A DNA stretch of 19,631 bases from a virus. Its lineage: Duplodnaviria; Heunggongvirae; Uroviricota; Caudoviricetes. The notes beneath the pieces are model-generated. The model was given only the letters and a program-made list of their open reading frames with translations. It made no database searches and was not told the DNA's origin. The position numbers and the translations under genes are program-made. The DNA is taken from IMG/VR virus record IMGVR_UViG_2541047837_000004. One strand, given 5' to 3'. Below, piece after piece: positions 319-16,845 of the stretch; position 1 is the stretch's first letter, and each line of letters opens with the position of its first letter.

Positions 319-692
319 TCCACCAGCGCATGTGCCACACCATACTGAAATGCGAGACTGAAAAATTGCTGCGCCCACACATCCAGTCGGCTCCCCTCCA
401 TGTCGATATTTTCTGCATATTCCCTGATTTTTTCCGGCGTTTCCTCACTCAATACTGTCGGCTCTGCAAATATGCGCCCAATATTTTGTTTGATGCTTTC
501 TTCATACACAGGAAGTAGCGTAGCCACAGACAGGCGTTTTTTATAAGCGTCTTCATCTTCATTAGGCCATTTGGGGAGATAATTTTCCCCCTGCCTGCGC
601 ATTTCAAGCGTACCGCCCATCAATGCGTCGTTAATATCCCACGCCTCCAGCATATCGTTATAGTCGAGGTTGGGTGTTGATATATCAGCCAT
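315..692 (-). pseudogene. phage head-module protein, putative portal, N-terminal fragment (125 aa)
   Basis: ATG lies 2 nt after the terminase large subunit stop, the usual portal position. The ORF ends at TAG 317-315, overlapping the sitB TAG within CTAG. Portal identity is inferred from position only. Confidence 0.3.
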
Positions 693-694
693 AA

Positions 695-1996: not shown

Positions 1997-3071
1997 CTTC
2001 ATCACTCCTTACTCTGGCATCAACCACATTAATATTGATCGCCACAGGCTGGGGATGTTCATTATCTTCCACCGTTTCGATCTCTTTGCGCAGCTTCTGG
2101 TTTTCCATTCTGCGTCGTTCAATTTCCAGTTCCTGTAGCCGCTTATCTGCACATAAAGCCCCGCCAGCAGAAAGCAAACGCAACAATTCACGCCGGGCGG
2201 CAGCCTTATCCTCCAGCAGGATCTCAACGCCGAATTTTCCGAGTTTTGCCCCTGCATATAATTGCCGCGCATCCCCATCAAGCAGAGTGGTATCAGCCAT
2301 ATAAAGCTGTCCCGTTCCCTCACCGCAGCACTTCGGGCAGTCCGGATTGGGTATGGCGTTATCAACAAAGCCGAGGCCTCCATATTCCGGTTCGGGTTTG
2401 CCATCTCTGGAAGCCTGCGCCGCTGCCTTGTCGAATTCTGCTATATCGCGCCACTGGTAGAGATGATTCTCGCCCCAGCAATAACGGCAGTTAACACGGC
2501 GAAATTGTGCAAGCTGATTGGGGTCGGCCAGGACAATAGCCATCAACTGACTCACTAGTAAATCCAGGTCTGCGGTATAGCGTTTCTGATACTGATTGCG
2601 GAAGTAGCTGATAGCGCGAAAAACCCTGGCATTTCTAAGCATACGACTGGCGTTGCTGTTAGCTGTCGCACCTTGCCCCTCATAACCGGCTAGTCGGTAC
2701 GCCTCTGTCGGCTTTTTACCCTGAGCAACAAGCATCGCAAACTTAGCCTGCTGGTCAGAAATGCCGAATTCATCGGGACAGAACGAAAATTCCTCCGCGT
2801 CGCCCTCATTCAGGCCCGCATCGAATACTGGCTTTTTTTCCTGAGATTTTTCGTTCCGCTTTTGTGCAGTCTGCGCAGATTTTTTCTGCGCACTTTTTTG
2901 CGCAGTTTTGCACATTTCTGTCTGCGCATTTTTCGGAGTTTTTTTGATGTAACGACGGGCTGTTGCGTAATTCAGTCCCCTTGCTTCACACCATGCCACC
3001 GGAGATATACCGGAGCGGGTGTATTCAGCAATATACTCCTGCTGCAACGCCCCCCAGTCCGGTCTGCTCAT
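1977..3071 (-). CDS. phage terminase small subunit (HTH N-domain, Cys-rich zinc-ribbon-like region)
   Basis: 364 aa immediately upstream of and overlapping the large subunit gene. N-terminal HTH-like segment, central segment typical of small terminase subunits (AKFAMLVAQGKKPTEAYRLAGYEG), and CRYCWGENH...CPKCCGEG cysteine cluster. AGGA Shine-Dalgarno upstream. Confidence 0.65.
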   Translation of the reverse strand: MSRPDWGALQQEYIAEYTRSGISPVAWCEARGLNYATARRYIKKTPKNAQTEMCKTAQKSAQKKSAQTAQKRNEKSQEKKPVFDAGLNEGDAEEFSFCPDEFGISDQQAKFAMLVAQGKKPTEAYRLAGYEGQGATANSNASRMLRNARVFRAISYFRNQYQKRYTADLDLLVSQLMAIVLADPNQLAQFRRVNCRYCWGENHLYQWRDIAEFDKAAAQASRDGKPEPEYGGLGFVDNAIPNPDCPKCCGEGTGQLYMADTTLLDGDARQLYAGAKLGKFGVEILLEDKAAARRELLRLLSAGGALCADKRLQELEIERRRMENQKLRKEIETVEDNEHPQPVAININVVDARVRSDEDDLSDA

Positions 3072-3074
3072 CAG

Positions 3075-3326
3075 TTAGTCCTGATTTTTATCCACCCTGA
3101 GTAGTTCGCGCAGAGCAAAGGCATCCCCTTTTCTGGCAAGCTTAAACAATGCCGCTCGTAACTCGGCTTCACCTTTCGCTCTGCCCTTACGGATGGCCGC
3201 ATAAAAATCTGTCATTGCTTCCCGATTTTCTTTCAGTCGGTTCAGATCAACATCCAGAACGTCAGCGATTTGTTGTGCAGTCATCCGGCACGCTGCCAGA
3301 GACTCGACTTTCGAATACGGAATCAT
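3075..3326 (-). CDS. small HTH-like protein (83 aa), function unknown
   Basis: ORF with GGGGGTGA Shine-Dalgarno 6 nt upstream of ATG 3326. Stop TAA lies 3 nt before the terS ATG. HTH-like segment MTAQQIADVLDVD. Overlaps the 3' end of the upstream gene by 65 nt. Confidence 0.4.
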   Translation of the reverse strand: MIPYSKVESLAACRMTAQQIADVLDVDLNRLKENREAMTDFYAAIRKGRAKGEAELRAALFKLARKGDAFALRELLRVDKNQD

Positions 3327-4194
3327 TTGTCACCCCCATTGATATGCAGGGTGTCTTCTTCCTGTATTTTTCGTGAAGGATTTTTACTGCAGCGTTGTTC
3401 CAGGTGACCTGATGGTGAATGCGTTTATGGCTGGCACCCATCAGTGAGATTTTTACGCACGACGGCGCATACATGACGGAGTAAAAACTTTTAACGTAGG
3501 TTCCGGAATCCAGATACAGCTCGGTCATTCCGCCGCTGTTTTTCTGCGTCTGTTTCTGCCCTAACTGGACAGCACCGATCGTCATAAACAATTCACCACA
3601 GCGACCGAGATTCGTGTACGTATTCACATCCTCGTTAATGCGCCCCATGAATGAGAACGGTCGATCAACCGAACAGATAAAGCTGTTCATTGCCTTGCGT
3701 TTCACCCACGAAGCATGGCCGCCATTGTCACCAAGAAAATCCCCGCCCTGCGACATAGCGATGGAAAGAGCAGGTATTGATTCGTAGTACGCCAGCATTT
3801 CAGAAAGGATCGCATCCAGTTTCCTTATCGGAAAATAGGCCTGGTCATAGTTGCGATCCACCCGAAACTGGAACTCGTGATAATCATCATCGAGCTGAAT
3901 GAAGTATTTACACCCGACCAGTTTTGCCAGGTCGAAACAGGCATTACGGGCGTAAAAAATTGAGCGGCGGTCACAGAAATTATCGGCTTCGTCAAAACGA
4001 CTGGCGATATCGGCTTTGGAAAACACCAGCACCTGTTCACCAAATTCAGCCATGTACTGATGCCGTGTCTTATCTTCATCATCAACAACGATAAAAATTT
4101 TCCCGGTATAGCCAGCACGACGCAACGTCCGGTAAGTCAGAACTTTGTCCGGTCGCCCGTGAGTCAGAATAAAGGCGCAAAAATCATCACGCAT
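3262..4194 (-). CDS. GT-A fold (GT2-like) glycosyltransferase-like protein, soluble
   Basis: Motifs FILTHGRPD and KIFIVVDDEDKT resemble the GT2 pattern (IIPTYNR ... EIIVVDDGS), followed by a DxD-like YFIQLDDDY. No obvious transmembrane segments. AGGAGGAGG Shine-Dalgarno before ATG 4194, which overlaps the ParB-like gene stop by 8 nt. Confidence 0.5.
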   Translation of the reverse strand: MRDDFCAFILTHGRPDKVLTYRTLRRAGYTGKIFIVVDDEDKTRHQYMAEFGEQVLVFSKADIASRFDEADNFCDRRSIFYARNACFDLAKLVGCKYFIQLDDDYHEFQFRVDRNYDQAYFPIRKLDAILSEMLAYYESIPALSIAMSQGGDFLGDNGGHASWVKRKAMNSFICSVDRPFSFMGRINEDVNTYTNLGRCGELFMTIGAVQLGQKQTQKNSGGMTELYLDSGTYVKSFYSVMYAPSCVKISLMGASHKRIHHQVTWNNAAVKILHEKYRKKTPCISMGVTNDSVFESRVSGSVPDDCTTNR

Positions 4195-4978
4195 ATTCCT
4201 CCTCCTCACCACCATGCATGATCTCCACCATGCGCTGCGTCATCCGGACAAATCCATTTTCAATAGCCTGCTGATAATCAATGATCACCAGCGCCGACTC
4301 CTCGAAAAAACACTGAATTTCAGCGGGGGCGTGAGCGTAATAGTCCGCAATTCTGCTGAAATTAAACACCGTGTGACGTTCTGCCGCACACAGGAGGAAT
4401 TTCTCAATATCAGGCTCAAGGGACGCCGAACGTATCCGGCTGATCAGCTCCTGAGTTTTCGTATCGTCGTACAGTTCACTGATATCCGGTTTACCGCCCG
4501 ACGGCTCATAAACAGGCGTATCAATTTTCGTCGTATACGGCTCCTCCTCATTTCCTGTACCGGGCAAAACATCCGTCAACAGTTCATCAATTTCTGTCGG
4601 GATGAAGCCTGTCAGGGAGACATCAAAATCAGCATTGATTAGGTCCGACAGCTCCATCCGCAACAGATCTTCATCCCAGCCAGCATTCATCGGCAGGCGA
4701 TTATCTGCCAGGCGGTACGCCTTTTTCTGCTCATCCGTCAGGCCAGACAGAACAATGACCGGAACAGAATCCATTTTGAGCATTTCAGCCGCCATAACAC
4801 GACCGTGACCCGCAATAATTTCGCCCTTTTCGTCAATCAGCACCGGATTAGTCCAGCCGAATTGCTTAATACTTTCTACCAGTTGTGCCACCTGCTCAGT
4901 ACTGTGCGTCCTGGCGTTGTGCGCATACGGTGACAATTCTTGTAATGGGCGATAGACTATCTTTAATTTCTCGCTCAT
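4187..4978 (-). CDS. ParB-like nuclease domain protein
   Basis: N-terminal ParB/Srx-like motifs (YAHNARTHS, VLIDEKGEIIAGHGRVMAA, VPVIVL); acidic C-terminus; 263 aa. Confidence 0.75.
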   Translation of the reverse strand: MSEKLKIVYRPLQELSPYAHNARTHSTEQVAQLVESIKQFGWTNPVLIDEKGEIIAGHGRVMAAEMLKMDSVPVIVLSGLTDEQKKAYRLADNRLPMNAGWDEDLLRMELSDLINADFDVSLTGFIPTEIDELLTDVLPGTGNEEEPYTTKIDTPVYEPSGGKPDISELYDDTKTQELISRIRSASLEPDIEKFLLCAAERHTVFNFSRIADYYAHAPAEIQCFFEESALVIIDYQQAIENGFVRMTQRMVEIMHGGEEEEYA

Positions 4979-5115
4979 ACAGCCTTGCTTTATGAATAAA
5001 ACGCACCCCAGCAGCCAGTGCTACTGGGGACTGAGGTGTTGCTGGTAAAGTTAGGTATTGGATCAATGAGTGAGTCAACATAATATTAAACTCACAATTA
5101 TAAATCAGCCATATA

Positions 5116-6573
5116 TTAGGAGCGCCAAAAAAAACCTGAAAACAATATAATAACAGGATAAATTTCAAGGCGACCAAGAATCATAGCTATGCACATTAAA
5201 CATTTTGCAATGTCATTAAGCACTCCGAATGACGATGCAGTAGCCCCAAAACCTAATCCCATATTATTAATACATGCAGCCACTGTTGCAAATGATGTAA
5301 GAAAATCATATCCCATACCATTTAACACCAGTATAAAAAACACCGTGAAGAGAGTATAAAGAAAAAAGAAACTCCATACAGACCTCATTACACGATCTGT
5401 AACTATCTTCCCTCCTACATTTACACTCAACAACGCTCTGGGATGAGAAAGCTGATTTATCTCGTGTTTGCTTTGTTTGAAAAGTATAAGAAATCGAAGT
5501 GACTTAATTCCACCACAAGTTGAACCTATACATCCCCCAAAGAAACTTGACAACAGCAAAAACACTATCGTGTGCGTGGGCCAACTTACATAATCCTGCG
5601 TAGCTAGACCATTATCAGTGAGCATGGAGCTGGCAAGAAAAAACGAATGAATAAAACTTCCATGCAAGTCATACATACCTATATGCCAGACCTGGAAAGA
5701 GGTAACAATGATCACCCCTAAGGCTATTAACAGAAAGAAACGAAGTTCAATATCTCTGATTAAAGGTTTTATCGTTTTCCTGCTAATAACAATATACCAA
5801 AGAGTGAAGTTGAAAGCCGATAGCAGGGAAAAAGAACCAGCCACCAGCTCAACCAAATAGTTATTAAAATATCCGATACTCTCGCTATGAGTTGAGAAAC
5901 CACCAAGCGAAACTGTGGAAATCCCGTGACAAATAGCATCAAACAAAGACATTCCTGCAAGTCTATAACAGACAATACAAGCAATACCTAATAAAGAATA
6001 AGTTATCCACAGTGTCCGTGACGTATCGGCCAGGCGGGGAGTGAGTTTGTCATCCTTAAATGGCCCCGGCATTTCTGACTGATAAAGCTTTGCACCACCA
6101 ATACCCAATAATGGCAATACAGCAACCGCCAGAACAATAACTCCTAAACCACCTATAAAATTTAACTGTGACCGATAGTACAAATATGCCCGAGGTAATG
6201 AACTAACATCATCAATTACAGTTGCTCCTGTTGTTGTTATTCCAGAAACCCCTTCAAACAGAGCATCAATGAACGTTAAATTAAGTTCTGAGTCAATCCA
6301 TAAAGGGAATGCACTAATAACAGAAAACAAAATCCAAAACATTACAATTATAATAAACCCATCACGGGTACGTAATTGAATGCCAGATTTCTTAGTTGTA
6401 TACCACGCTCCGCCACCAATGCAAAAAAATATAACGAAAGTTATAAAGAAAACGAACAGGCTTTTTTCTTTATAAAACAATGCTACAACCATTGGTGGCA
6501 ACATTGAAAGACTATAGAGCCAAACCAGGAACCCACACATATGAGTAACAACTCTTACATGAGATGTATTCAT
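5116..6573 (-). CDS. trkG: Trk system potassium uptake protein TrkG
   Basis: Polytopic membrane protein of about 485 aa from MNTSHVRVV, with repeated GGxG-type selectivity-like segments. The gene is markedly AT-rich relative to its flanks. Matches recalled Rac prophage TrkG. Confidence 0.9.
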   Translation of the reverse strand: MNTSHVRVVTHMCGFLVWLYSLSMLPPMVVALFYKEKSLFVFFITFVIFFCIGGGAWYTTKKSGIQLRTRDGFIIIVMFWILFSVISAFPLWIDSELNLTFIDALFEGVSGITTTGATVIDDVSSLPRAYLYYRSQLNFIGGLGVIVLAVAVLPLLGIGGAKLYQSEMPGPFKDDKLTPRLADTSRTLWITYSLLGIACIVCYRLAGMSLFDAICHGISTVSLGGFSTHSESIGYFNNYLVELVAGSFSLLSAFNFTLWYIVISRKTIKPLIRDIELRFFLLIALGVIIVTSFQVWHIGMYDLHGSFIHSFFLASSMLTDNGLATQDYVSWPTHTIVFLLLSSFFGGCIGSTCGGIKSLRFLILFKQSKHEINQLSHPRALLSVNVGGKIVTDRVMRSVWSFFFLYTLFTVFFILVLNGMGYDFLTSFATVAACINNMGLGFGATASSFGVLNDIAKCLMCIAMILGRLEIYPVIILFSGFFWRS

Positions 6574-6710
6574 ATCTAAATATTCTTTCAATTATAACCA
6601 CCTTGCTGCAATATTATGATTATACTGTATAAAATTTAACTCCTCTTAGATCTTACTTCACTGTTCCTTATGAAACAATCATCAAAATGAATCATATTGT
6701 AGTTAAGATT

Positions 6711-7175
6711 TTACTTTAAACACTGCTCGGTTATGTATTGCTGAGCACCTTCAAGTTGGGCCTGCATCATTACCAGTCGTTCCCGGAGGGTGAAATAATC
6801 CCGTTCAGCGGTGTCTGCCAGTCGGGGGGAGGCTGCATTATCCACGCCGGAGGCGGTGGTGGCTTCACGCACTGACTGATAGACTGCTTTGATGTGCAAC
6901 CGACGACGACCAGCGGCAACATCATCACGCAGAGCATCATTTTCAGCTTTCGCATCAGCTAACTCCTTCGTGTATTTTGCATCGAGCGCAGCAACATCAC
7001 GCTGACGCATCTGCATGTCAGTAATTGCCGCGTTCGCCAGCTTCAGTTCTCTGGCATTTTTGTCGCGCTGGGCTTTGTAGGTAATGGCGTTATCACGGTA
7101 ATGATTAACAGCCCATGACAGGCAGACGATGATGCAGATAACCAGAGCGGAGATAATCGCGGTTACTCTGTTCAT
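6711..7175 (-). CDS. rzpR: i-spanin Rz
   Basis: [38 protein letters not shown] closely resembles lambda Rz as recalled. ATG overlaps the endolysin stop (ATGA). Confidence 0.85.
6770..6955 (-). CDS. rzoR: o-spanin Rz1 lipoprotein (embedded in Rz, +1 frame)
   Basis: 61 aa, lipobox VVGC, proline-rich [16 protein letters not shown], lying wholly inside the Rz ORF in another frame. Confidence 0.8.
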
Positions 7176-7669
7176 TGCTGACCCCACAAACAGATTTCAC
7201 GCTCAATCTCACGACGAGTCATGAGACCTTTCCATTGCTTACCGCCAGCATATGTCCAGCGACGTAGCTGATCACATGCGCCTTTGATATCGCCCTGGTT
7301 TATTTTGCGAAGAAGCGTCGATGTTCTGAAATTGCCAGCACCCACGTTGTAAACGAATGAGTAAAGAGCGCCGCGCGTTGTTTCCGGTATATCGACTTTG
7401 ATGTACGGGTTAATTTGTCTGGCGACAGTGGCAAGGTCTTTATTCAAGAGTGTTTTGCATTCTGCTTTGGTATACGTTTTACCGAGCATGATGTCTTTTC
7501 CTGTATGCCCGTGACATACAGTCCATACACCAACAATATCTTTGTATGGTATGTAGCTGACACCTTCCAGACCATCGTTACCACTTGGGCCAGTGATTAA
7601 CACTGATGCTATAGCAATTGCTCCGCCACCAATAGCAGCAGCAACGACTTTTCGTAATGATGGAGGCAT
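7172..7669 (-). CDS. SAR endolysin (P21 R-like lysozyme)
   Basis: 165 aa with a Gly/Ala-rich N-terminal signal-anchor-release segment ([21 protein letters not shown]) and a lysozyme-like body; closely resembles phage 21 endolysin as recalled. Confidence 0.9.
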
Positions 7670-7884
7670 TATTCACCTCTCGCAGCCTTGCGCTTATCTT
7701 CTTTAATCTTGAAATAAAGGTTTGTCAGGTACGTCAGCAGGCCAAATACCAGACTACCCAGCACACCGATTGCAGCCCACTGTGACGGAGTTACTCTATC
7801 GAGCAACTGTAAAAACCAGTAGCCAGCACTGCCTGCGGAGGTGCCGTAGGCAATGCCTGTTGAAATTTTGTCCATGGATTTCAT
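7669..7884 (-). CDS. pinholin (S21-like) with dual-start motif
   Basis: [26 protein letters not shown]...: Met-Lys-Ser-Met dual start (ATG at 7884 and 7875) with GGAGGTGA Shine-Dalgarno; two transmembrane segments; 71/68 aa. Stop overlaps the endolysin ATG. Confidence 0.85.
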
Positions 7885-7980
7885 AGCCTCACCTCCGCAC
7901 GGAACGGATGGCATAGTTATTATGTGTAGGCTTTCAGACACATCAATCAGAGCCTTAATTGATATATATGCTGGAGACGA

Positions 7981-8010
7981 TGCAATATAAAAAGCTCGCC
8001 GTAGCGAGCT
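7981..8010 (-). terminator. intrinsic terminator downstream of lipoprotein gene 1
   Basis: Hairpin AGCTCGC-cgta-GCGAGCT at 7993-8010, followed on the minus strand by UUUUAUAUU. Confidence 0.45.
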
Positions 8011-8135
8011 AATAAAATGTATTTCTCTGATATTATATTTATTTGTATTAGCTCAGACTTGACATCACAGGTTTCGTATATAGAACATCATCAAATCTGT
8101 CAGTTTGCTATGAATGAGATATAGTAATTGAAGAG

Positions 8136-8531
8136 CTAACCTCGCATGTCAAAGCCAGATTTCTGAAAATCTCTGTAGACTTCCGGATTGTTGAAGGCCG
8201 GAAATTTGGCTTTATGAGCTGCGGACTTTATCGCTTCGCAATAGGCTTTATCACCGTTACTGGTAGATATTTTTAACGCCGTGCCATCCTGAGAGAATTC
8301 CATATGCAACCTGCATTTTTTCCCTTTCCAGTTATGCGGCTCATCAAGTTTGGCATTAATTGCAGCTCTGATTCCCCGCGCTTGCGCCCCCCATTCATCC
8401 TGATCATCCCAGCGTCCTGAACTGCAACTACCTGTAGCAGTAGTTTTGTGGCAATCTGAAGGGTGTAAAGGTGTGCATCCCGTAACAAAACCGACCCAAA
8501 AAGTCAACATAACGATTTTCTTTAATCCCAC
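8136..8531 (-). CDS. lipoprotein with TolA domain III-like C-terminal domain
   Basis: GTG start with GAGGAG Shine-Dalgarno; signal peptide MGLKKIVMLTFWVGFVTGC with lipobox and Thr at +2. C-terminus KKCRLHMEFSQDGTALKISTSNGDKAYCEAIKSAAHKAKFPAFNNPEVYRDFQ parallels the TolA C-terminal domain as recalled. Confidence 0.65.
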   Translation of the reverse strand: MGLKKIVMLTFWVGFVTGCTPLHPSDCHKTTATGSCSSGRWDDQDEWGAQARGIRAAINAKLDEPHNWKGKKCRLHMEFSQDGTALKISTSNGDKAYCEAIKSAAHKAKFPAFNNPEVYRDFQKSGFDMRG

Positions 8532-8681
8532 TTCTTGCTCCTCAATCCATTAAAATCTCAGCAATAGTAGTTGTTACGTCCGCCACTGGCTCAGAGCTGA
8601 CTATCCGCTAAATTTAGCTCAGTGCCGTAGCTGTGTCAGAACAAACCTAAGCCGAAACCGTTTATTACAAAACAATAAATA

Positions 8682-9110
8682 TCAGGGTTTAAAATCCAGC
8701 ACCCCATTTTGAAATACTTTATATACTTCCGGCGAAGGGGGGGCAGGTATATCAGCATTCTTTATCGCATTCATCGCTTCACGACATAAATCGAGGTCTC
8801 CACTTTCTCTTTTAACCTCCAGTAGAAGGCCATTCGGGGCCATATGCATTCTCAGTGTACACTCTTTTCCTGAATACTTACTCGCATCCCCGAACTGTTT
8901 TTCGATGGCGCTCTTGATTTGATGGGCATACAGACGGATATCCTCACTAACATCAGAAGTACGTTCAGATGAACTCACATACTGTGTCTCTATTGCTTTA
9001 TCGGAGTAATATGATGTACGGTCATGATAATTTGTCGATACAGCATCAGTGCACCCGATAATAATCCCACTAATAATCAACGTAAGAATTGATGCGCTAC
9101 GAAAACCCAT
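8682..9110 (-). CDS. lipoprotein with TolA domain III-like C-terminal domain
   Basis: Signal peptide with lipobox IIGC and Thr at +2. C-terminal 80 aa (QIKSAIEKQFGDASKYSGKECTLRMHMAPNGLLLEVKRESGDLDLCREAMNAIKNADIPAPPSPEVYKVFQNGVLDFKP) align residue for residue with recalled E. coli TolA C-terminus (...GKTCTLRIKLAPDGMLLDIKPEGGDPALCQAA...PPSQAVYEVFKNAPLDFKP). Confidence 0.75.
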   Translation of the reverse strand: MGFRSASILTLIISGIIIGCTDAVSTNYHDRTSYYSDKAIETQYVSSSERTSDVSEDIRLYAHQIKSAIEKQFGDASKYSGKECTLRMHMAPNGLLLEVKRESGDLDLCREAMNAIKNADIPAPPSPEVYKVFQNGVLDFKP

Positions 9111-9139
9111 TTTTCCTCACATATGTCATATAGTAAAGG

Positions 9140-9169
9140 ATTATATATACCGTTGTTTTGGACGCTCAA
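9140..9169 (-). promoter_or_regulatory. sigma70-like promoter for lipoprotein gene 2
   Basis: Minus strand reads TTGAGC, 18-nt spacer, TATAAT, about 25 nt upstream of the ATG at 9110, which has a GAGGAAAA Shine-Dalgarno. Confidence 0.35.
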
Positions 9170-9698
9170 ACAGCGAATCAGATCAAATAAAACGCACATT
9201 TGTTAACATTTACACAAAGTCTGCGTGGGATATTCTGAAAGAATATCCATAATGTGGAGAGAATCTATTGAAGTGCATGGTGCCGGGTGCCTCCCGGTGA
9301 ACAAAATGTTCGTGATACCTGTCGGCGACAGAAAAGGTTAATGGTATCACCCCACCGCACAGGGGGATTCACCATGCAGGAGTTTTCTTAGCAAACTCAC
9401 TGCGCGCCCGGCAACTCCCAACCACATAAAATGCGGAGTTTGTGGCATTTATGCATATAACTAGCAGGAATTATCTTAAAAAACTGATGTCGATCCGGAT
9501 TAAAAAGAAGCAGGTCATCATCAGATGACTGGAAAAAAGGAAAACAAAAAATACTCATCATACAGTTTTGATTGCAGGGATGAGCCTGCTATGCACAATA
9601 TGCAGAATATAAGCAAGATAAAAATATGCAGGCATATTATTTCGGATTTTGTTATTAACACAACCTTTTTAATAATCATTTGGCATACAATAAACCAG

Positions 9699-9727
9699 CC
9701 CAAAAAGAACCGCCTAAACAGGCGGTT
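9699..9727 (-). terminator. intrinsic terminator (second of a tandem pair)
   Basis: Stem AACCGCC-taaaca-GGCGGTT at 9708-9727, followed on the minus strand by CUUUUUGGG. Confidence 0.45.
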
Positions 9728-10047
9728 GGTCAATACAAAGGATGCTTCGTCTTTATTATAGTAATCTGAGGCGTCGGGTGTCTTGTATCAGACAACATAT
9801 TGTCCCGCTAAACAGCGAATTACAAACCACCCTGCAATGATCTCTCATCTCATTTTATATGAGTTGACGACATCAGGATAACGCATCATCAGCCCCTGCC
9901 AAGAAATATCAAAACTCCCGCCAGCAATGTGTTATCACAATATTGTAAAAAAAACACAGCACCGAAACTATAACTGGTCTCTGTTATAATTTGGAGCAGA
10001 AAGACCAGTTGCCCAATTAGCAGCATTCTCCCCTGCTTTCCTGACGT

Positions 10048-10075
10048 AAAAAAACCGCATTAAGCGGTTTTTTTA
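10048..10075. terminator. bidirectional intrinsic terminator
   Basis: AAAAAAACCGC-attaa-GCGGTTTTTTT: GC stem flanked by an A-run and a T-run, so it is functional on either strand. It lies about 80 nt downstream of the 153-aa ORF stop on the minus strand. Confidence 0.6.
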
Positions 10076-10154
10076 CGATGTCCATGTCTGCAATCCGCCT
10101 CGCGATACAGCTTTGCGAAGCATAGCAAAATTGAAGCAGTTTATACGTAAGAAA

Positions 10155-10616
10155 TCAAGCCATTTTCTCAGCGAATGATTCTCGCATGGGAATGTATAGC
10201 GCATACTCAGCAACGGCCAACCAATTAGCAATTCGCTTTTCGCATGTGCTAAAACACCACTCTGGGTGTGCATCATTTAGCAATTCAGCCATTTTGCGTT
10301 TGGTCATCCCCCGCCCCTCATACCGTTGCCGAAGGACGCTAATCAATCCTGGATGCTCTGCCAGCACCTCACTTATGACCCGATCAATACATAACGCCTC
10401 TGCATCAGTACAATGCGCCAGCCAGCTCTTTTGCTTACCGTTAATCATATCCCGCAAAAAAGCCTCAAGTTCAGACTTGTTCAGACCTGCTTTTTTCATC
10501 CTCCGGAGCGCCTCGTTAATTGCCGTTTTTGTCAGCTTTTTAGAGGCCAACAACTGGTTGAACATATTCCCCGTCTTTCCGGTAAACGGCTTGGACTGCA
10601 TCATCATGCGCATCAA
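10155..10616 (-). CDS. hypothetical protein, candidate late-gene regulator (Q-like by position only)
   Basis: Last ORF of the leftward early operon, directly upstream of the tandem terminators and the lysis region. Four Cys (C-x6-C, C-x4-C). Start is uncertain: Met codons at 10616, 10601 and 10565, the last with a purine-rich Shine-Dalgarno. Overlaps ydaT by 26-77 nt. Confidence 0.45.
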   Translation of the reverse strand: MMRMMMQSKPFTGKTGNMFNQLLASKKLTKTAINEALRRMKKAGLNKSELEAFLRDMINGKQKSWLAHCTDAEALCIDRVISEVLAEHPGLISVLRQRYEGRGMTKRKMAELLNDAHPEWCFSTCEKRIANWLAVAEYALYIPMRESFAEKMA

Positions 10617-10947
10617 TTGCCGTACTTAACGCTTCCTGCGCCGCCAGTAATGCACGGCGTTCCAGGGTATCGAAGATGCAGAGTCGGTGACGCAGCTCGC
10701 GCGGAAGGATTGCCAGAATTGCTGGGATCAGCTTCTGAATTTTTTCTCTTTGCGTTTTCGTTTCACCTTTCAACCAACGGTGATAGATATTCTGCTGATT
10801 GTTCCAGTCCTTGCCTGGAACCAGGGGCAATTCGCCGCCCCCCTGGCGCAGATATTCTTCAGTAATTGCATTGGCTACCCATGCCTGCCCTTTTTCGGCT
10901 GCTAGGGCAAACAACACTGATTCGATGTGCTCATGCTTGATTTTCAT
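10540..10947 (-). CDS. ydaT: Rac prophage protein YdaT
   Basis: MKIKHEHIESVLFALAAEKGQAWVANAITEEYLRQ... matches recalled Rac YdaT; immediately downstream of ydaS. Confidence 0.8.
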   Translation of the reverse strand: MKIKHEHIESVLFALAAEKGQAWVANAITEEYLRQGGGELPLVPGKDWNNQQNIYHRWLKGETKTQREKIQKLIPAILAILPRELRHRLCIFDTLERRALLAAQEALSTAIDAHDDAVQAVYRKDGEYVQPVVGL

Positions 10948-10969
10948 GAATCATTTGCCTCTTGATGTT

Positions 10970-11266
10970 TCAGGTATGATCAAATGAGGATTTGTTACTG
11001 TCATTTAGTTGCTTCACTGACATATTCTGCGAACAACATGCCGAACGTCGTAAATATGACCAGTCAATATCAGGACGAAGTTCTTCGCACAGAACCTCAC
11101 CTCTTGTTGCACGTTCAATTGCTGGACATCTCTCGGCAGGCAATTGACGTACCCCTTTGATCCATTGATTTACGCTTGGAGGTGATACACCTAAAAGCCT
11201 AGCCATTGCTGATTGCCCACCGACAACAGCACAAGCTTGCTTGAATGAATAGTTCTCATTTTTCAT
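10970..11266 (-). CDS. ydaS: Cro-like HTH regulator YdaS
   Basis: 98 aa, MKNENYSFKQACAVVGGQSAMARLLGVSPPSVNQWIKG (HTH); diverges from racR; TGGAG Shine-Dalgarno. Confidence 0.85.
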   Translation of the reverse strand: MKNENYSFKQACAVVGGQSAMARLLGVSPPSVNQWIKGVRQLPAERCPAIERATRGEVLCEELRPDIDWSYLRRSACCSQNMSVKQLNDSNKSSFDHT

Positions 11267-11292
11267 CGAATGAACTCCAAAAACACACAGAA

Positions 11293-11322
11293 ATATTAGG
11301 CGACGCCTAACGCAATTGTCAA
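11293..11322 (-). promoter_or_regulatory. PR-like promoter with palindromic operator (drives ydaS-ydaT)
   Basis: Minus strand reads TTGACA (11322-11317), 18-nt spacer, TAATAT (11298-11293). Perfect 15-bp palindrome TTAGGCGaCGCCTAA at 11296-11310 overlaps the spacer and -10. Confidence 0.4.
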
Positions 11323-11389
11323 TAGGCTGTGCCTAATGCGGTAAGGGTAGGGATTGCCTAATGTAATGCGCATAGGAGAATATTAAGCA

Positions 11390-11866
11390 ATGCTTAGTGG
11401 TAAAGACTTAGGCCGAGCGATAGAGCAGGCCATTAACAAAAAAATCGCATCGGGATCCGTCAAATCAAAGGCGGAGGTCGCACGCCACTTCAAAGTCCAA
11501 CCACCATCAATTTATGACTGGATTAAGAAAGGCTCTATAAGTAAAGATAAACTTCCAGAATTATGGCGTTTCTTTTCTGATGTTGTTGGTCCAGAGCATT
11601 GGGGGCTTAACGAATACCCCATACCAACCCCCACCAATTCAGATACAAAAAGTGAACTTTTAGATATAAACAACCTTTATCAAGCAGCCTCTGATGAAAT
11701 AAGAGCGATTGTAGCTTTCCTGTTATCTGGAAATGCTACAGAACCAGATTGGGTTGACCACGATGTTCGCGCCTACATAGCAGCGATGGAAATGAAAGTG
11801 GGTAAGTATCTGAAAGCTCTAGAATCTGAACGGAAAAGCCAGAACATCACAAAAACTGGAACTTAA
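11390..11866 (+). CDS. racR: Rac prophage repressor RacR
   Basis: 158 aa, MLSGKDLGRAIEQAINKKIASGSVKSKAEVARHFKVQPPSIYDWIKKG (HTH); AGGAG Shine-Dalgarno 10 nt upstream; divergent from ydaS. Confidence 0.9.
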   Translation: MLSGKDLGRAIEQAINKKIASGSVKSKAEVARHFKVQPPSIYDWIKKGSISKDKLPELWRFFSDVVGPEHWGLNEYPIPTPTNSDTKSELLDINNLYQAASDEIRAIVAFLLSGNATEPDWVDHDVRAYIAAMEMKVGKYLKALESERKSQNITKTGT

Positions 11867-11976
11867 ACTTATATGGTCTGACGGAAAACTCCTGGATTCC
11901 GTTATTTAACCCCCCCATCACTTTCTGCTGTCGCCATCACCTATTAGGTTACGCTCAAAACATTAGGCATAGCCTA

Positions 11977-12005
11977 TTGACAATCAATTAGGCATTACCT
12001 ATAGT
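11977..12005 (+). promoter_or_regulatory. PL-like promoter with operator-like motif (drives ydaG onward)
   Basis: TTGACA (11977-11982), 17-nt spacer containing ATTAGGCAT, TATAGT (12000-12005). It sits in a 24-bp element that is the inverted repeat, with one mismatch, of 11314-11337. Confidence 0.4.
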
Positions 12006-12174
12006 TCCAGCATACCACCCACCCCGCCCCACAGAACGCCGGGCAATACTTCGAGTTACCAGGCAGTGGTAAGGGGTTAAGTAGCCAGCCCGAGGCGTAT
12101 GAACATGACGGCGGGATTCAAATTTTGCAGTGCAGCAGTTAGTTCCGCCACCCGGCGTTAAGGGGAGAGATAAG

Positions 12175-12309
12175 ATGGTGCATTACGAAGTAGTTCAGTA
12201 TTTGATGGATTGTTGCGGTATCACTTACAACCAGGCTGTGCAGGCTTTACGCAGCAACGACTGGGATCTCTGGCAGGCAGAAGTCGCTATACGTAGCAAC
12301 AAGATGTGA
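12175..12309 (+). CDS. ydaG: small Rac protein YdaG (44 aa)
   Basis: ORF MVHYEVVQYLMDCCGITYNQAVQALRSNDWDLWQAEVAIRSNKM with GGGGAGAG Shine-Dalgarno; too short for the ORF track; matches recalled YdaG. Confidence 0.55.
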   Translation: MVHYEVVQYLMDCCGITYNQAVQALRSNDWDLWQAEVAIRSNKM

Positions 12310-12319
12310 GATTCGCAAA

Positions 12320-12475
12320 ATGCAAAAAATCGACCTCGGCAACAACGAATCCCTGGTGTGCGGCGTGTTCCCCAACCAGGATGGAACGTTCACTGCCATG
12401 ACGTATACCAAAAGCAAAACATTTAAAACCGAAACTGGTGCGCGCCGATGGTTGGAGAAGCACACAGTAAGCTAA
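12320..12475 (+). CDS. ydaF: small Rac protein YdaF (51 aa)
   Basis: ORF MQKIDLGNNESLVCGVFPNQDGTFTAMTYTKSKTFKTETGARRWLEKHTVS; stop is convergent with the sieB stop. Confidence 0.55.
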   Translation: MQKIDLGNNESLVCGVFPNQDGTFTAMTYTKSKTFKTETGARRWLEKHTVS

Positions 12476-12960
12476 CGATTAAAACGTCTACTCCTGCTGT
12501 TCCAGAATAACTTCATAAAATGGGAGTATTTTTCGGTGACGAGATAATAAGAACAGTTTGCGCTATCACTCTGATGTTGAATGATGCCCTTCCGTTCTAA
12601 TTTTTTCATAACCGGGTTACGGCAAGGAGAAGTGATAATAAGATTTCCTGTTTTAAGGAAATCTTTAAATACAGCGATTTCTTTCTCAGATAAACGAAGC
12701 AATACTCGTTGCTCTGGTAGTAATGAATAATGCTTTTGAATATGTGCTCGCAATCTTGAGAAGGAAATGGCGACCACGAAAGAAAAGGCAAAAACGATAA
12801 TCTGAAAGAGCCAAGGTATTTCAGTATAAGCATTGAATGCGACAGTAAACTCTTTCGGTATCAGCCAGAGAGTGAGACCAAAAATGATAATCGTATACAT
12901 AAGTCTTTCGAGTGGCTCGTTAGCAAAAAGTTTCAACAATGGAGTAAATACATCCAACAT
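12472..12960 (-). CDS. sieB: superinfection exclusion protein SieB
   Basis: 162 aa from MLDVFTPLLKLFANEPLERLMYTIIIFGLTLWLIPKEF, with an N-terminal membrane segment. The ORF track extends it upstream to 13083, but the recalled SieB starts at this internal Met. Confidence 0.85.
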   Translation of the reverse strand: MLDVFTPLLKLFANEPLERLMYTIIIFGLTLWLIPKEFTVAFNAYTEIPWLFQIIVFAFSFVVAISFSRLRAHIQKHYSLLPEQRVLLRLSEKEIAVFKDFLKTGNLIITSPCRNPVMKKLERKGIIQHQSDSANCSYYLVTEKYSHFMKLFWNSRSRRFNR

Positions 12961-13401
12961 ATCAATAACTCTCAACTGTAAGGGTATTGAAATGTTAACA
13001 CAAGCTCTCGCTGTAGGGGTATAGCCGAGACCACCGAAGCCCGGAGGTGGTGAAATAAAACCGGGCACAACACGAAGGCGCATTTCCGATATCCATAAAG
13101 AGTCGGTCTTGTCTGTTAAATTTAAATGGTGGGAGTGCGCCTCCGGTTGTAAATAACGACATTGCTGTGTGTAGTCCTGGCGGCATCAGTTTTTTTCTTG
13201 AAGTTCGGCTGATGTCCGCCCTTTTTAAAGTGAATTTTGTGATGCGGTGAATGCGGCTAAGCGCACGTGGCACAGTTAAAAGTCATGTTAGTCCTTATTG
13301 GTTTGGGTGGGAAAGCCGACTGTAATTGTTAACTGGTTGCAGTCACCTGGAGGCACCAGACACCGCATCAACAAAGTTCATTTGTAAAAATGGAGATAAT
13401 T

Positions 13402-13623
13402 ATGATTGCACATCACTTCGGAACTGATGAAATACCACGTCAGTGTGTGACTCCTGGCGATTATGTTCTTCATGAAGGCCGGACATATATTGCCTCGGCA
13501 AACAATATTAAAAAGCGAAAACTATATATTCGTAACCTGACCACAAAAACATGCATTACTGACCGCATGATTAAAGTCTTCCTCGGTCGTGATGGTTTAC
13601 CTGTAAAGGCGGAGTCATGGTGA
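13402..13623 (+). CDS. kilR: cell division inhibitor KilR
   Basis: 73 aa [40 protein letters not shown]...; GGAG Shine-Dalgarno 5 nt upstream of ATG 13402. Confidence 0.85.
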
Positions 13624-13793
13624 TGACTAAGAAAATAAAATGTGCTTACCACCTTTGCAAAAAAGACGTTGAAGAAAGCAAAGCTATTGAAAGAATGCTT
13701 CACTTCATGCACGGGATTTTATCAAAAGACGAACCGAGAAAATATTGCAGTGAAGCTTGTGCCGAAAAAGACCAGATGGCACATGAACTTTAA
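13623..13793 (+). CDS. ydaE: small Cys-rich Rac protein YdaE (56 aa)
   Basis: [59 protein letters not shown]; its ATG overlaps the kilR stop. Confidence 0.6.
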   Translation: MTKKIKCAYHLCKKDVEESKAIERMLHFMHGILSKDEPRKYCSEACAEKDQMAHEL

Positions 13794-13867
13794 TTAATTG
13801 ACTATTCGAAACTGAATTTATGCCAGAAATGGCAGGTATTCGCTCAACCTTAATTAAGGAGAAAAAC

Positions 13868-14143
13868 ATGATTACCAATTATGAAGCCACTGTTGTAACT
13901 ACCGATGACATTGTTCACGAGGTGAATCTGGAAGGAAAGCGCATTGGCTACGTAATTAAAACAGAAAATAAAGAAACCCCATTCACTGTGGTTGATATCG
14001 ATGGTCCATCAGGCAACGTAAAAACACTTGATGAAGGTGTCAAAAAAATGTGCCTGGTGCATATCGGAAAGAATCTGCCCGCAGAAAAAAAAGCCGAATT
14101 TCTGGCAACTCTAATTGCAATGAAATTAAAAGGTGAAATCTGA
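13868..14143 (+). CDS. racC: Rac prophage protein RacC
   Basis: 91 aa from MITNYEATVVTTDDIVHEVNLEGKR; AGGAG Shine-Dalgarno upstream. Confidence 0.8.
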   Translation: MITNYEATVVTTDDIVHEVNLEGKRIGYVIKTENKETPFTVVDIDGPSGNVKTLDEGVKKMCLVHIGKNLPAEKKAEFLATLIAMKLKGEI

Positions 14144-14148
14144 AAGAA

Positions 14149-14173
14149 ATAGCCTGCGTATGGCGCAGGCTAT
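14149..14173. other. GC-rich hairpin between racC and recE
   Basis: Perfect 10-bp inverted repeat ATAGCCTGCG-tatgg-CGCAGGCTAT beginning 6 nt after the racC stop. Confidence 0.4.
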
Positions 14174-14244
14174 GAACAGTGTGTATCCGGCAAGATCATT
14201 CACTGAACAAAACGAATTTTAATCTGAGTTGAGGTTAAAAAACA

Positions 14245-16845
14245 ATGAGCACAAAACCACTCTTCCTGTTACGGAAAGCGAAAAAATCATCCGGTGAACC
14301 TGACGTCGTCCTGTGGGCAAGCAACGATTTTGAATCGACCTGTGCCACTCTGGACTACCTGATCGTTAAGTCAGGTAAAAAACTGAGCAGCTATTTTAAA
14401 GCTGTTGCCACGAATTTTCCTGTCGTTAATGACCTGCCCGCTGAAGGTGAGATCGATTTTACCTGAAGTGAACGCTATCAACTCAGCAAAGACTCCATGA
14501 CATGGGAACTAAAACCGGGAGCAGCACCAGACAACGCTCACTATCAAGGCAATACCAACGTCAACGGCGAAGACATGACTGAGATTGAGGAGAATATGCT
14601 ACTCCCAATTTCTGGCCAGGAACTGCCCATTCGTTGGCTTGCTCAACACGGCAGCGAAAAACCGGTAACGCACGTTTCACGCGACGGACTCCAGGCATTA
14701 CACATTGCTCGGGCTGAAGAACTACCGGCTGTTACTGCCCTGGCTGTTTCCCACAAAACCAGCCTGCTCGACCCGCTGGAAATTCGCGAACTCCACAAAC
14801 TGGTTCGTGACACTGACAAAGTTTTCCCTAATCCTGGTAATTCAAACCTGGGACTGATAACTGCTTTTTTCGAAGCATACCTGAACGCTGACTACACCGA
14901 TCGAGGACTGCTGACAAAAGAGTGGATGAAGGGTAATCGTGTTTCACACATCACTCGCACGGCTTCCGGTGCTAATGCTGGCGGCGGAAACCTCACCGAT
15001 CGCGGCGAAGGTTTCGTACACGATCTGACGTCACTGGCGCGCGACGTAGCCACTGGCGTACTGGCCCGTTCAATGGATCTGGACATCTATAACCTTCATC
15101 CGGCACACGCTAAACGCATTGAGGAAATTATCGCTGAAAATAAACCGCCCTTTTCTGTTTTCCGCGACAAATTCATCACCATGCCTGGCGGGCTGGATTA
15201 TTCCCGCGCCATCGTGGTTGCGTCCGTAAAAGAAGCACCAATTGGGATCGAGGTCATCCCCGCGCACGTCACTGAATATCTGAACAAAGTACTGACTGAA
15301 ACCGATCATGCCAACCCTGATCCGGAAATCGTGGATATTGCCTGCGGTCGCTCCTCTGCCCCGATGCCGCAGCGAGTAACAGAAGAAGGAAAACAGGATG
15401 ATGAAGAAAAACCGCAACCATCTGGAACAACGGCAGTTGAACAGGGAGAGGCTGAAACAATGGAACCGGACGCAACTGAACATCATCAGGACACGCAGCC
15501 GCTGGATGCTCAGTCACAGGTAAATTCTGTTGATGCGAAATATCAGGAACTGCGGGCAGAACTCCATGAAGCCCGGAAAAACATTCCATCAAAAAATCCT
15601 GTCGATGCCGATAAATTGCTTGCTGCATCACGTGGTGAATTTGTTGACGGAATTAGCGACCCGAACGATCCGAAATGGGTAAAGGGGATCCAGACTCGCG
15701 ATTGTGTGTACCAGAACCAGCCAGAAACGGAAAAAACCAGCCCAGATATGAATCAACCTGAGCCAGTAGTGCAACAGGAACCGGAAATAGCCTGCAATGC
15801 CTGCGGCCAGACTGGCGGGGATAACTGCCCTGACTGTGGTGCGGTGATGGGCGACGCAACATACCAGGAAACATTCGATGAAGAGAGTCAGGTTGAAGCT
15901 AAGGAAAATGATCCGGAGGAAATGGAAGGCGCTGAACATCCGCACAATGAGAATGCTGGCAGCGATCCGCATCGCGATTGCAGTGATGAAACTGGCGAAG
16001 TCGCAGATCCCGTAATCGTAGAAGACATAGAGCCAGGTATTTATTACGGAATTTCGAATGAGAATTACCACGCGGGTCCCGGTATCAGTAAGTCTCAGCT
16101 CGATGACATTGCTGATACTCCGGCACTATATTTGTGGCGTAAAAATGCCCCCGTGGACACCACAAAGACAAAAACGCTCGATTTAGGAACTGCTTTCCAC
16201 TGCCGGGTACTTGAACCGGAAGAATTCAGTAACCGCTTTATCGTAGCACCTGAATTTAACCGCCGTACAAACGCCGGAAAAGAAGAAGAGAAAGCGTTTC
16301 TGATGGAATGCGCAAGCACAGGAAAAACGGTTATCACTGCGGAAGAAGGCCGGAAAATTGAACTCATGTATCAAAGCGTTATGGCTTTGCCGCTGGGGCA
16401 ATGGCTTGTTGAAAGCGCCGGACACGCTGAATCATCAATTTACTGGGAAGATCCTGAAACAGGAATTTTGTGTCGGTGCCGTCCGGACAAAATTATCCCT
16501 GAATTTCACTGGATCATGGACGTGAAAACTACGGCGGATATTCAACGATTCAAAACCGCTTATTACGACTACCGCTATCACGTTCAGGATGCATTCTACA
16601 GTGACGGTTATGAAGCACAGTTTGGAGTGCAGCCAACTTTCGTTTTTCTGGTTGCCAGCACAACTATTGAATGCGGACGTTATCCGGTTGAAATTTTCAT
16701 GATGGGCGAAGAAGCAAAACTGGCAGGTCAACAGGAATATCACCGCAATCTGCGAACCCTGTCTGACTGCCTGAATACCGATGAATGGCCAGCTATTAAG
16801 ACATTATCACTGCCCCGCTGGGCTAAGGAATATGCAAATGACTAA
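14245..16845 (+). pseudogene. recE: exodeoxyribonuclease VIII RecE, interrupted by in-frame TGA at 14464-14466 (codon 74)
   Basis: ORFs 14245-14466 and 14497-16845 are in the same frame with a single stop between them. The span is 867 codons, matching the 866-aa RecE length recalled for E. coli K-12. Confidence 0.8.
14497..16845 (+). CDS. recE: RecE C-terminal ORF (782 aa) retaining the exonuclease domain
   Basis: Longest intact ORF downstream of the nonsense codon. The C-terminal region ([22 protein letters not shown] ... DVKTT ...) is the nuclease domain. Stop overlaps the recT ATG. Confidence 0.6.

Follow-up and report, generated by a model that had tools for sequence, protein, structure and literature searches.

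A defective Rac-type prophage of Escherichia coli carries a deletion-truncated DUF1133 (Q-type) gene and a conserved candidate late promoter-terminator cassette

The analysed window, a 19,631-nt stretch of DNA from IMG/VR virus record IMGVR_UViG_2541047837_000004, is a decayed Rac-type prophage of E. coli and is 100% identical to E. coli LR-64-2. We consider it highly probable that the region downstream of its ydaT gene represents the broken late-gene switch of this defective prophage, in which a Q gene was truncated by a deletion and the promoter-terminator cassette behind it was left as an orphan. All coordinates below are those of the window.

The gene remnant lies within an open reading frame of 153 codons (10155-10616, minus strand; TTG start in the ORF list). 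The initial annotation could not assign this ORF to a family and proposed profile searches against antiterminator Q families. Such searches give a clear assignment: the ORF matches Pfam DUF1133 (PF06576; E-value 8.8e-78, 260.2 bits, cut-off 23.1) and PHROG 753, "anti-termination protein Q-like" (E-value 3e-56). Both matches start well inside the profiles. The DUF1133 match spans only positions 39-175 of 176, and ORF residues 14-151 correspond to positions 43-184 of 189 in PHROG 753. The gene name "antitermination protein Q" is used in GenBank phage records, e.g. Rac-SA53, where the homologous gene is labelled q, and vB_EcoS-673R7. A further candidate for a DUF1133 gene, K-12 ydfU of the Qin prophage, was dropped, as its record says just "protein YdfU" and lends no support.

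DUF1133 is connected to the antiterminator of phage 21 by several comparisons. The two Pfam models cross-match: a 192-aa DUF1133 protein scores 46.7 bits against PF06530 (the Q21/Q933W family, gathering score 26 bits), a full-length E. coli DUF1133 allele reaches 26.1 bits and the window ORF 23.9 bits, while Q21-type proteins in return exceed the DUF1133 cut-off. A DUF1133 profile finds the Q21 chains 6p18_P and 6jnx_P in the PDB (E-value 9e-7) in a collinear match (positions 19-39 with 11-31 and 94-180 with 56-154), and it reaches Q21-type proteins at an E-value of 6.5e-6 in a search of 1.84 billion representatives. Alignment of the same profile to one PF06530 protein with hhalign returned a probability of 3.8%, a value that is uninformative with a single-sequence target. 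In a Foldseek search with an AF2 model, the nine top PDB matches are all Q21 chains (E-value ~1e-2, probability 1.0) and the next match has an E-value >2.7. TM-scores to Q21 are 0.46-0.60 for this model, which is poor overall (pLDDT 58.7), falls below 50 in its N-terminal half and is confident only at residues 100-176. Q21/Q933W (PDB 6P18, 6P19, 6JNX) provides both a collinear match over nearly the whole length and the only PDB match to the predicted fold. Its genome position and its gene-promoter-terminator layout are also those of DUF1133 loci. The families differ in about 30 extra residues of DUF1133 proteins, inserted after the conserved N-terminal helix and ahead of the body, at the site of the segment that forms torus helix H2 in Q21. 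Profiles, predicted fold and layout together place DUF1133 in the phage 21 Q (Q21/Q933W) superfamily as a divergent member, and DUF1133 proteins would be expected to act as antiterminators.

The four cysteines of the ORF, correctly described in the initial annotation as two pairs (residues 69, 76, 121 and 125), have CX6C and CX3C spacing, and one could expect a zinc-finger regulator, given that lambda Q has a zinc site. We regard this as almost certainly wrong. The family alignment A1, which covers six genera, has no invariant Cys column; members from Providencia, Edwardsiella and Klebsiella have L, I, A, Y or H at these positions, which leaves the zinc-finger idea with no support. Moreover, Q21, the homologue with a solved structure, is described as a DNA binder of the helix-turn[loop]-helix type.

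Alignment to full-length alleles establishes that the ORF retains only codons 41-180 and the stop codon of a 180-aa protein (10155-10577, minus strand). The first 13 codons (LMRMMMQSKPFTG; 10578-10616, minus strand) are out-of-frame ydaT coding sequence and contain no part of Q. The junction was defined by sense-strand comparison of the window with a ydaT parent (L002) and a Q parent (L068). It falls in an AAG at 10575-10577 (minus strand) that is common to ydaT (...CCGGAAAG/CGCATT) and Q (...GGCGGTAAG/ACGGGG) and fuses ydaT codon 124 to Q codon 41. A breakpoint at 10571/10575 with a 3-nt filler was also considered and proved an artefact of comparison with a GRSG allele; the GKTG allele of L068 places the junction in the AAG. 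Relative to an intact Rac-type prophage (L015, positions 14273-20909), 6,637 bp are missing, including the O-like and DnaC-like replication genes and the nin-type genes.

The same event shaped the neighbouring gene. The ydaT ORF (10540-10947, minus strand), which encodes the regulator at the CII position, was identified by the Pfam YdaT_toxin model (E-value 6e-11) and by comparison with the 140-aa YdaT of EC2001. Its first 124 codons are native; the last 11 (DGEYVQPVVGL) are foreign and come from Q DNA translated in a different frame. The ydaT ORF shares 77 nt with the 153-aa ORF. This overlap had been pointed out before, as had the lack of a replication gene, and the window annotation indeed has nothing O/P-like or DnaC-like in the interval from ydaT to the ORF. 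Both are consequences of the single 6.6-kb deletion and not of genome design. The early rightward operon of intact relatives starts with ydaS (at the Cro position) and ydaT, continues with O-like/DnaC-like and then nin-type genes and ends with the gene for the 180-aa DUF1133 protein. In L015, Rac-SA53 and vB_EcoS-673R7 the DUF1133 gene closes this operon, with the late promoter directly behind it and the lysis genes beyond. L015 has the nin-type genes DUF1367 and DUF1364 ahead of the DUF1133 gene and contains no second Q gene. The window shares the racR-ydaS-ydaT immunity region, recET, intR at ttcA and trkG with the Rac prophage of E. coli K-12 and with Rac-SA53. Its decay differs from that of K-12 Rac and full-size Rac: one deletion took the 5' end of Q with the replication and nin genes, and a second, which reaches sitB, removed head and tail genes as well.

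Residues 1-40, which the window copy lacks, include the most conserved N-terminal block of the family. Complete DUF1133 proteins are ~176-192 aa long and carry a ...W..G.L.MWGRW... block that is missing from the window ORF together with the most conserved residues of the family (W23, G26, L28, M30, W31, G32, R33 and W34). The counterparts of this block in the alignment with Q21 are helix H1 and the linker from H1 to H2, both of which form part of the "torus" at the RNA exit channel (bioRxiv 10.1101/651190). On direct reading of the sequence, neither the TTG nor the ATG starts of the ORF have a suitably spaced Shine-Dalgarno. PGAP annotates the locus as a pseudogene ("DUF1133 family protein, incomplete, missing N-terminus"). 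Judged from its sequence, this reading frame of 153 codons is a 5'-truncated pseudogene that has probably lost its function. A truncated Q of this kind is an ordinary prophage remnant and is already annotated as such. A 150-aa "partial" protein (P0058, 322 members) was a candidate for the same truncation and turned out to be a contig-edge fragment starting at WGRW.

One could still ask whether the truncated ORF is expressed. In that case its product might act as a dominant-negative "anti-Q" that keeps the DNA-binding body, lacks the N-terminal helix and fills the Q-binding site while leaving the polymerase unmodified, so that a superinfecting Rac-type phage would be unable to activate the late cassette in trans. 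Translation could start at ATGs of the ORF or at an internal Met (ORF residue 18, M45 of the full-length protein). The latter has GGGG four bases upstream; the upstream starts have no ribosome-binding site. The frame is open to the natural stop, and the retained residues 41-180 cover the region aligned to Q21 56-154, including the helix-turn[loop]-helix; yet the ORF sits inside the RacR-repressed ydaS-ydaT operon and carries the PGAP pseudogene call. The identical junction is found in E. coli FDAARGOS_1337 and is thus kept in two diverged lineages. However, among 5,426 complete E. coli genomes just 2 carry it, which gives no sign of selection, and recombination downstream of the junction explains its persistence equally well. 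Taken together, we consider an "anti-Q" role very unlikely and return to the broken switch as the preferred reading.

The second part of this switch lies immediately behind the ORF. We read from the sequence a candidate late promoter, equivalent to PR' (10130-10158, minus strand), with a -35 TTGATT (10158-10153) that overlaps the TGA stop codon of the ORF (10157-10155), a 17-nt spacer and a -10 TTCAAT (10135-10130). A consensus promoter scan missed it because the -10 in the window lacks the key A at position 2. Versions with canonical hexamers (e.g. TTGACA-16-TAGTAT) follow the DUF1133 genes of Providencia, Edwardsiella, Xenorhabdus, Yersinia and Serratia, and the spacer between -35 and -10 is semi-conserved among relatives (TTACg.A.AAAcT). 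Past the -10, by 5 nt in the window and by 4-7 nt in relatives, sits the -10-like hexamer TATGCT (10119-10124, minus strand). Of the 46 complete DUF1133 loci compared, 38 contain the family consensus, TAnGCT, in the interval from -40 to +90 around the stop codon. Given its position, the hexamer is a candidate sigma-dependent pause element; alternatively, it may itself be the real -10 (TGcTATGCT).

The predicted transcript from this promoter is a short leader RNA with a hairpin at each end. The 5' hairpin (GCUUCGC ... GCGAGGC) folds from 10097-10121 (minus strand). In about 31 of 37 family leaders, the first 34 nt adopt as their minimum-energy fold a hairpin that begins at the G of TAnGCT, and the hairpin stems differ in sequence among them. 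From Escherichia to Proteus and Yersinia, the GCT of the hexamer opens a covarying 5' hairpin of a ~75-nt leader, an observation taken up again below. The leader would end at the intrinsic terminator AAAAAAACCGCTTAATGCGGTTTTTTT (10048-10074), the equivalent of tR', which lies 80 nt past the ORF stop. With an A-run on one flank and a T-run on the other, it is bidirectional by sequence, in agreement with the initial annotation. An 83-nt RNA containing it folds at -30.6 kcal/mol (z-score -4.5, 0 of 200 shuffles as good). A consensus terminator scan did not report it because the stem rule absorbs the T-run. Homology to L068 stops at 10047, so that the terminator marks the end of the Q module. In other species, an intrinsic terminator follows the stop by 37-125 nt at 42 of 46 complete DUF1133 genes, and the hexamer and the terminator occur in this order at 36 of the 46 loci. 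The promoter-terminator cassette is conserved across Enterobacterales and, to judge from the elements above, is intact in the window. The lambdoid Q layout seen by the initial annotation accordingly holds for the Q-type family, the position and the cassette; the gene is a pseudogene rather than an intact Q, and the arrangement around it owes its present form to a deletion, not to genome design.

This conservation also bears on the possibility that DUF1133 is a nin-region DNA-binding regulator of another kind and that the 10048-10074 hairpin is a plain terminator of the early rightward operon. The similarity of DUF1133 to Q21 is remote, and our literature search found no experimental test of the family and no report of antitermination by any DUF1133 protein. 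In some Salmonella prophages a second, canonical PF06530 gene lies upstream, so the DUF1133 protein may not be the sole late regulator in every phage. However, profile, reciprocal Pfam and fold evidence all tie the family to Q21, and intact Rac-type phages have no other Q candidate before their lysis genes. Besides, a plain terminator needs no promoter, whereas distant genera have one with good -35 and -10 elements between the stop codon and the terminator. We find this alternative very unlikely.

By analogy with Q21, which recognises an element of two 8-bp subsites and binds DNA via a helix-turn[loop]-helix, an intact DUF1133 protein would bind DNA at the late promoter right after its own gene and load onto RNA polymerase paused just past initiation. 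The loaded polymerase would then read through the terminator ~75 nt downstream, and readthrough may go on past further terminators into the moron and lysis genes. We looked in the cassette for a Q-binding element, i.e. a direct repeat like the two Q21 subsites, and did not find one. In the window, an illegitimate deletion at the AAG microhomology took away the replication genes along with the first 40 residues of Q. The cassette remains with no cognate activator encoded here, and its transcripts should stop at 10048.

A similar logic operates at lambda PR', where a promoter after Q, a -10-like hexamer at the transcript start and a short terminated leader (6S RNA, ending at tR') precede the lysis genes. 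The lambda leader is 194 nt long and that of the window ~75 nt. The antiterminators themselves belong to unrelated families, lambda Q being a PF03589 protein with a zinc site. In Salmonella Gifsy-1, the antQ gene is immediately followed by isrK, a 77-nt terminated RNA with partial readthrough (PMC4825925). The predicted leader of the window (10121-10048) gives a full-length weak match to isrK (RF01394) over the 5' hairpin and the terminator. At 21.6 bits against a gathering score of 50, and with other terminator-ended families scoring alike, the leader was rejected as an isrK homologue. Salmonella DUF1133 loci yielded no isrK that reaches the gathering score, and Gifsy-1 AntQ (STM2617) belongs to the Q82 family (PF06323, 396 bits), unlike DUF1133. 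The resemblance is one of architecture only, an analogy and not homology.

On the plus strand, an 8-bp inverted repeat (9973-10009; arms 9973-9980 and 10002-10009) surrounds an extended -10, TGtTATAAT (9982-9990). This is the repeat and -10 element of the initial annotation, a few bases off the position given there. It has no -35, and the consensus scan did not call it. The bidirectional leader terminator faces this convergent extended -10. A predicted plus-strand RNA from it to the terminator would be ~78 nt long; its fold (z-score -5.9) is mostly owed to the terminator, and it matches no Rfam family at threshold. A joint reading of these elements supposes that DUF1133 has a loading signal of its own and that the plus-strand transcript is an antisense small RNA, and, separately, that truncated Q is a dominant-negative site-blocker. 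It builds on the hexamer-hairpin arrangement described above, and we consider it unlikely. If true, an antisense small RNA ending at the leader terminator could add an RNA layer to late-gene control.

Further downstream on the minus strand, the scan called a promoter-like site, AAGACA-18-TATAAT (9784-9755), and a second terminator, AACCGCCTGTTTAGGCGGTTCTTTTT (9727-9702), which together span 9702-9784. The latter had been noted in the initial annotation; its hairpin has an unexceptional fold (z-score -1.7). Tandem terminators past the late promoter are also found in three relatives (L031, L039 and L052). The spacer at 9400-10047, which holds both of these elements, is specific to this prophage and has no match among 50,697 phage records, its ORFs (9525-9761 on the plus strand; 9521-9733, 9397-9561 and 9889-10026 on the minus strand) have no PHROG match, and a tRNA search of the region found none.

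Overall, the puzzling ORF at the Q position and the missing replication genes before it both go back to a single deletion that scarred a cryptic prophage. By itself, the LR-64-2 prophage should be capable of neither replication nor switching on its lysis genes. For biology at large the importance is small, and the reference annotation already flags the pseudogene. At the level of the family, the label "DUF1133" hides a branch of Q21 antiterminators, as seen in sequence, fold, position and cassette, and its annotation could be upgraded. The late cassette of Rac-type phages is strongly conserved and would give a fourth experimental Q system, one with an enlarged "torus" segment.

The initial annotation could assign no family to the 153-aa ORF that starts with TTG, lies on the minus strand at 10155–10616 and, as reported there, overlaps the ydaT ORF (10540–10947), by 77 nt. 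We found that it matches Pfam DUF1133 (E-value 8.8e–78) and, bearing out the suggested profile search against antiterminator Q families, PHROGs family phrog_753, "anti-termination protein Q-like" (E-value 3e–56); the match to PF06530, the family of the phage 21 Q protein (Q21), is weaker (23.9 bits, below the cut-off of 26). The DUF1133 profile (23 members) matches the Q21 structures 6p18_P and 6jnx_P (E-value 9e–7), collinearly (residues 19–39 with 11–31 and 94–180 with 56–154), DUF1133 proteins having an insertion of ∼30 residues that separates the N-terminal helix from the body. Among 1.84 billion representative proteins, this profile reaches Q21-type proteins (E-value 6.5e–6) that pass the DUF1133 cut-off. 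Conversely, a DUF1133 protein of 192 aa scores 46.7 bits with PF06530, above its cut-off, and the full-length E. coli Q allele scores 26.1 bits against the cut-off of 26. An AlphaFold model of a full-length DUF1133 protein is weak (pLDDT 58.7 overall, with a weak N-terminal half and good residues 100–176); Q21 chains nonetheless make up its top nine PDB matches (E-value ∼1e–2), and no other match falls below an E-value of 2.7. Together, the profiles and the model point to DUF1133 as a branch of the Q21 superfamily. GenBank phage records (Rac-SA53, vB_EcoS-673R7 and others) already name the DUF1133 protein "antitermination protein Q"; we found no published experimental test of its activity. The four cysteines noted earlier are present in two pairs (residues 69, 76, 121 and 125). 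A zinc site, as in the proposed zinc-finger families, is unlikely, because these pairs are not conserved within the family. The representative search also returned two proteins of 366–379 aa (P0232 and P0238) with an HNH_3 endonuclease domain and a C-terminal DUF1133/Q21-like domain, a fusion unexpected for an antiterminator fold. Salmonella enterica prophages (L008–L010; 1025–1549 and 5001–5543) carry two Q21-superfamily genes each: the first, a canonical PF06530 gene, encodes 174 aa and has a plain terminator directly 3′; the other is the DUF1133 gene, which precedes the lysis genes and has two tRNA genes downstream.

Window positions 9300–11300 match the chromosome of E. coli LR-64-2 (NZ_AP027595.1) with 100% identity; there, RefSeq annotates a Rac-type prophage with the order intR, xisR, rcbA, ralR, recT, recE, racC, ydaE, kilR, sieB, ydaF, racR, ydaS, ydaT, the DUF1133 gene, two TolA-C-terminal-domain genes, essD, rrrD, rzpD, trkG, ynaK′ and terminase genes, and at its end a fusion of portal-gene and sitB fragments. 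In the window, all genes treated here are on the minus strand. All family-profile matches of the 153-aa ORF begin at profile position 39–43, PGAP labels the CDS "incomplete, missing N-terminus", and full-length Q alleles have 180 aa. In the nearly intact relative from isolate F163 (L015), positions 4017–14272 align with window 316–10571 (99.3%) and positions 20910–21288 with window 10575–10953, hence 6,637 bp are missing from the window. The missing segment runs from the 3′ end of ydaT to the 5′ end of Q and contains an O-like gene, ydaV (DnaC-like), DUF1627, DUF977, hok, DUF1367 and DUF1364. In agreement with the initial annotation, ORF, Pfam and RefSeq data place no O/P-like or DnaC-like gene between ydaT and the 153-aa ORF. 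The alignments show that one deletion truncated Q and took out the replication genes; it also accounts for the "missing replication module".

Comparison with L068, which has a closer Q allele, and L002, where ydaT is intact, places the crossover in an AAG common to both parents (10575–10577). Residues 1–13 of the ORF are ydaT DNA read in another frame and residue 14 is K41 of Q; YdaT retains 124 of its 140 residues, followed by a new 11-residue tail. The lost Q segment includes the most conserved block of the family (W23, G26, L28 and M30–W34), which in the profile alignment corresponds to Q21 helix H1 and the H1–H2 linker, elements that help to build the "torus" threaded by nascent RNA (bioRxiv 10.1101/651190). 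Since, besides this N-terminal truncation, sequence inspection found no usable ribosome-binding site 5′ of the upstream start codons, the ORF is best read as a pseudogene.

Of 5,426 complete E. coli genomes, 2 carry the ydaT::Q junction. In the second, FDAARGOS_1337 (L067, 2131–2923), the junction is identical, but the Q remnant is only 88.5% identical and the late region differs, which implies recombination downstream of an inherited junction scar; the late genes of FDAARGOS_1337 include a lambda-family holin and a GH24 lysozyme. In E. coli EC2001 (L002, 7684–8562), a shortened DUF1367 gene comes immediately after the intact ydaT, and Q is full length; this is another, independent decay route in which replication genes were again deleted. 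At window 1–692, a sitB fragment (1–315) is joined to a portal-gene (DUF4055) fragment (318–692). This fusion implies a second deletion that took head and tail genes with adjacent chromosome, leaving the prophage with defects at either end of its late region.

The lambdoid Q layout proposed initially holds for the kinds of element (Q gene, late promoter, terminator), but the gene itself is the deletion-truncated pseudogene. On the minus strand, a candidate –35 TTGATT (10158–10153) overlaps the TGA stop of the Q remnant and is followed after 17 nt by a candidate –10 TTCAAT (10135–10130), which has no A at position 2 and escaped the promoter scan. The –10-like hexamer TATGCT (10124–10119) lies five bases past it, and TGcTATGCT could instead be an extended –10. 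A predicted leader hairpin GCUUCGC…GCGAGGC (10121–10097) precedes the first terminator, AAAAAAACCGCTTAATGCGGTTTTTTT (10048–10074), 80 nt past the ORF stop; its symmetry makes it bidirectional by sequence (RNA –30.6 kcal/mol, z-score –4.5), and the consensus scan missed it only through a stem rule absorbing the T-run. From 51 loci of other species, the 46 with a complete DUF1133 gene were analysed. An intrinsic terminator lies 37–125 nt past the stop codon in 42 of these, TAnGCT is present in 38, and both occur in the right order in 36. Providencia, Edwardsiella, Xenorhabdus, Yersinia and Serratia loci have canonical promoter hexamers (e.g. TTGACA-16-TAGTAT). The first 34 nt of the leader form a hairpin starting at the G of TAnGCT in ∼31 of 37 cases, with stems that vary by lineage (GCUUCGC/GCGAGGC, GCUCGG/CUGAGC and GCUGUG/CACAG in loci L016–L066 and window 10097–10124). 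Because the stems differ, TAnGCT with its GCT opening the 5′ hairpin may be a selected RNA or DNA element. The cassette is intact in the window and conserved, and shares the gene–promoter–pause–terminator layout of described Q systems, the pause here being predicted from sequence. We recognised no Q-binding element in the window cassette. A weak match of the predicted leader to isrK (21.6 bits) reflects only architectural likeness; the Q gene adjoining isrK in Gifsy-1 is Q82-type.

The Q module ends at the bidirectional terminator: different Q alleles lose homology exactly there (window 10047). The 937-bp spacer beyond (9111–10047) belongs to a different mosaic module, and its matches to sequenced phages are confined to the distal part. 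That part, matching mostly Stx1 phages, gives a strong match to the STnc100 prophage sRNA family (RF02076; 9221–9407, minus strand; 86.6 bits, gathering score 47), located 110 nt 5′ of the first TolA-like gene. The second minus-strand terminator described initially was called by the scan as a hairpin at 9702–9727, preceded by promoter-like AAGACA-18-TATAAT; tandem terminators 3′ of the late promoter also occur in relatives L031, L039 and L052. The plus-strand CTGGTCT…TTATAAT…AGACCAG element is likewise real, with 8-bp arms (9973–9980 and 10002–10009) enclosing an extended –10 TGtTATAAT (9982–9990) that faces the bidirectional terminator and could give an RNA of ∼78 nt converging on the late leader. 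We found no –35 or Rfam family for this element (9973–10075), no counterparts of it or of the second terminator in sequenced phages, and no family match for the small ORFs of the spacer. Two paralogous, lipoprotein-like TolA-C-terminal-domain genes (8682–9110 and 8136–8531, minus strand; PF06519; phrog_5772, function unknown) occupy the moron slot between Q and holin, near promoter-like TTGAGC-18-TATAAT (9169–9140, minus strand), and may influence phage or colicin entry that depends on TolA.

Overall, the finding is an ordinary one with an existing explanation, the family being already named Q-like in both PHROGs and GenBank. Only two points are mildly new: DUF1133 can be linked firmly to Q21, and the cassette downstream of DUF1133 genes is strikingly conserved.
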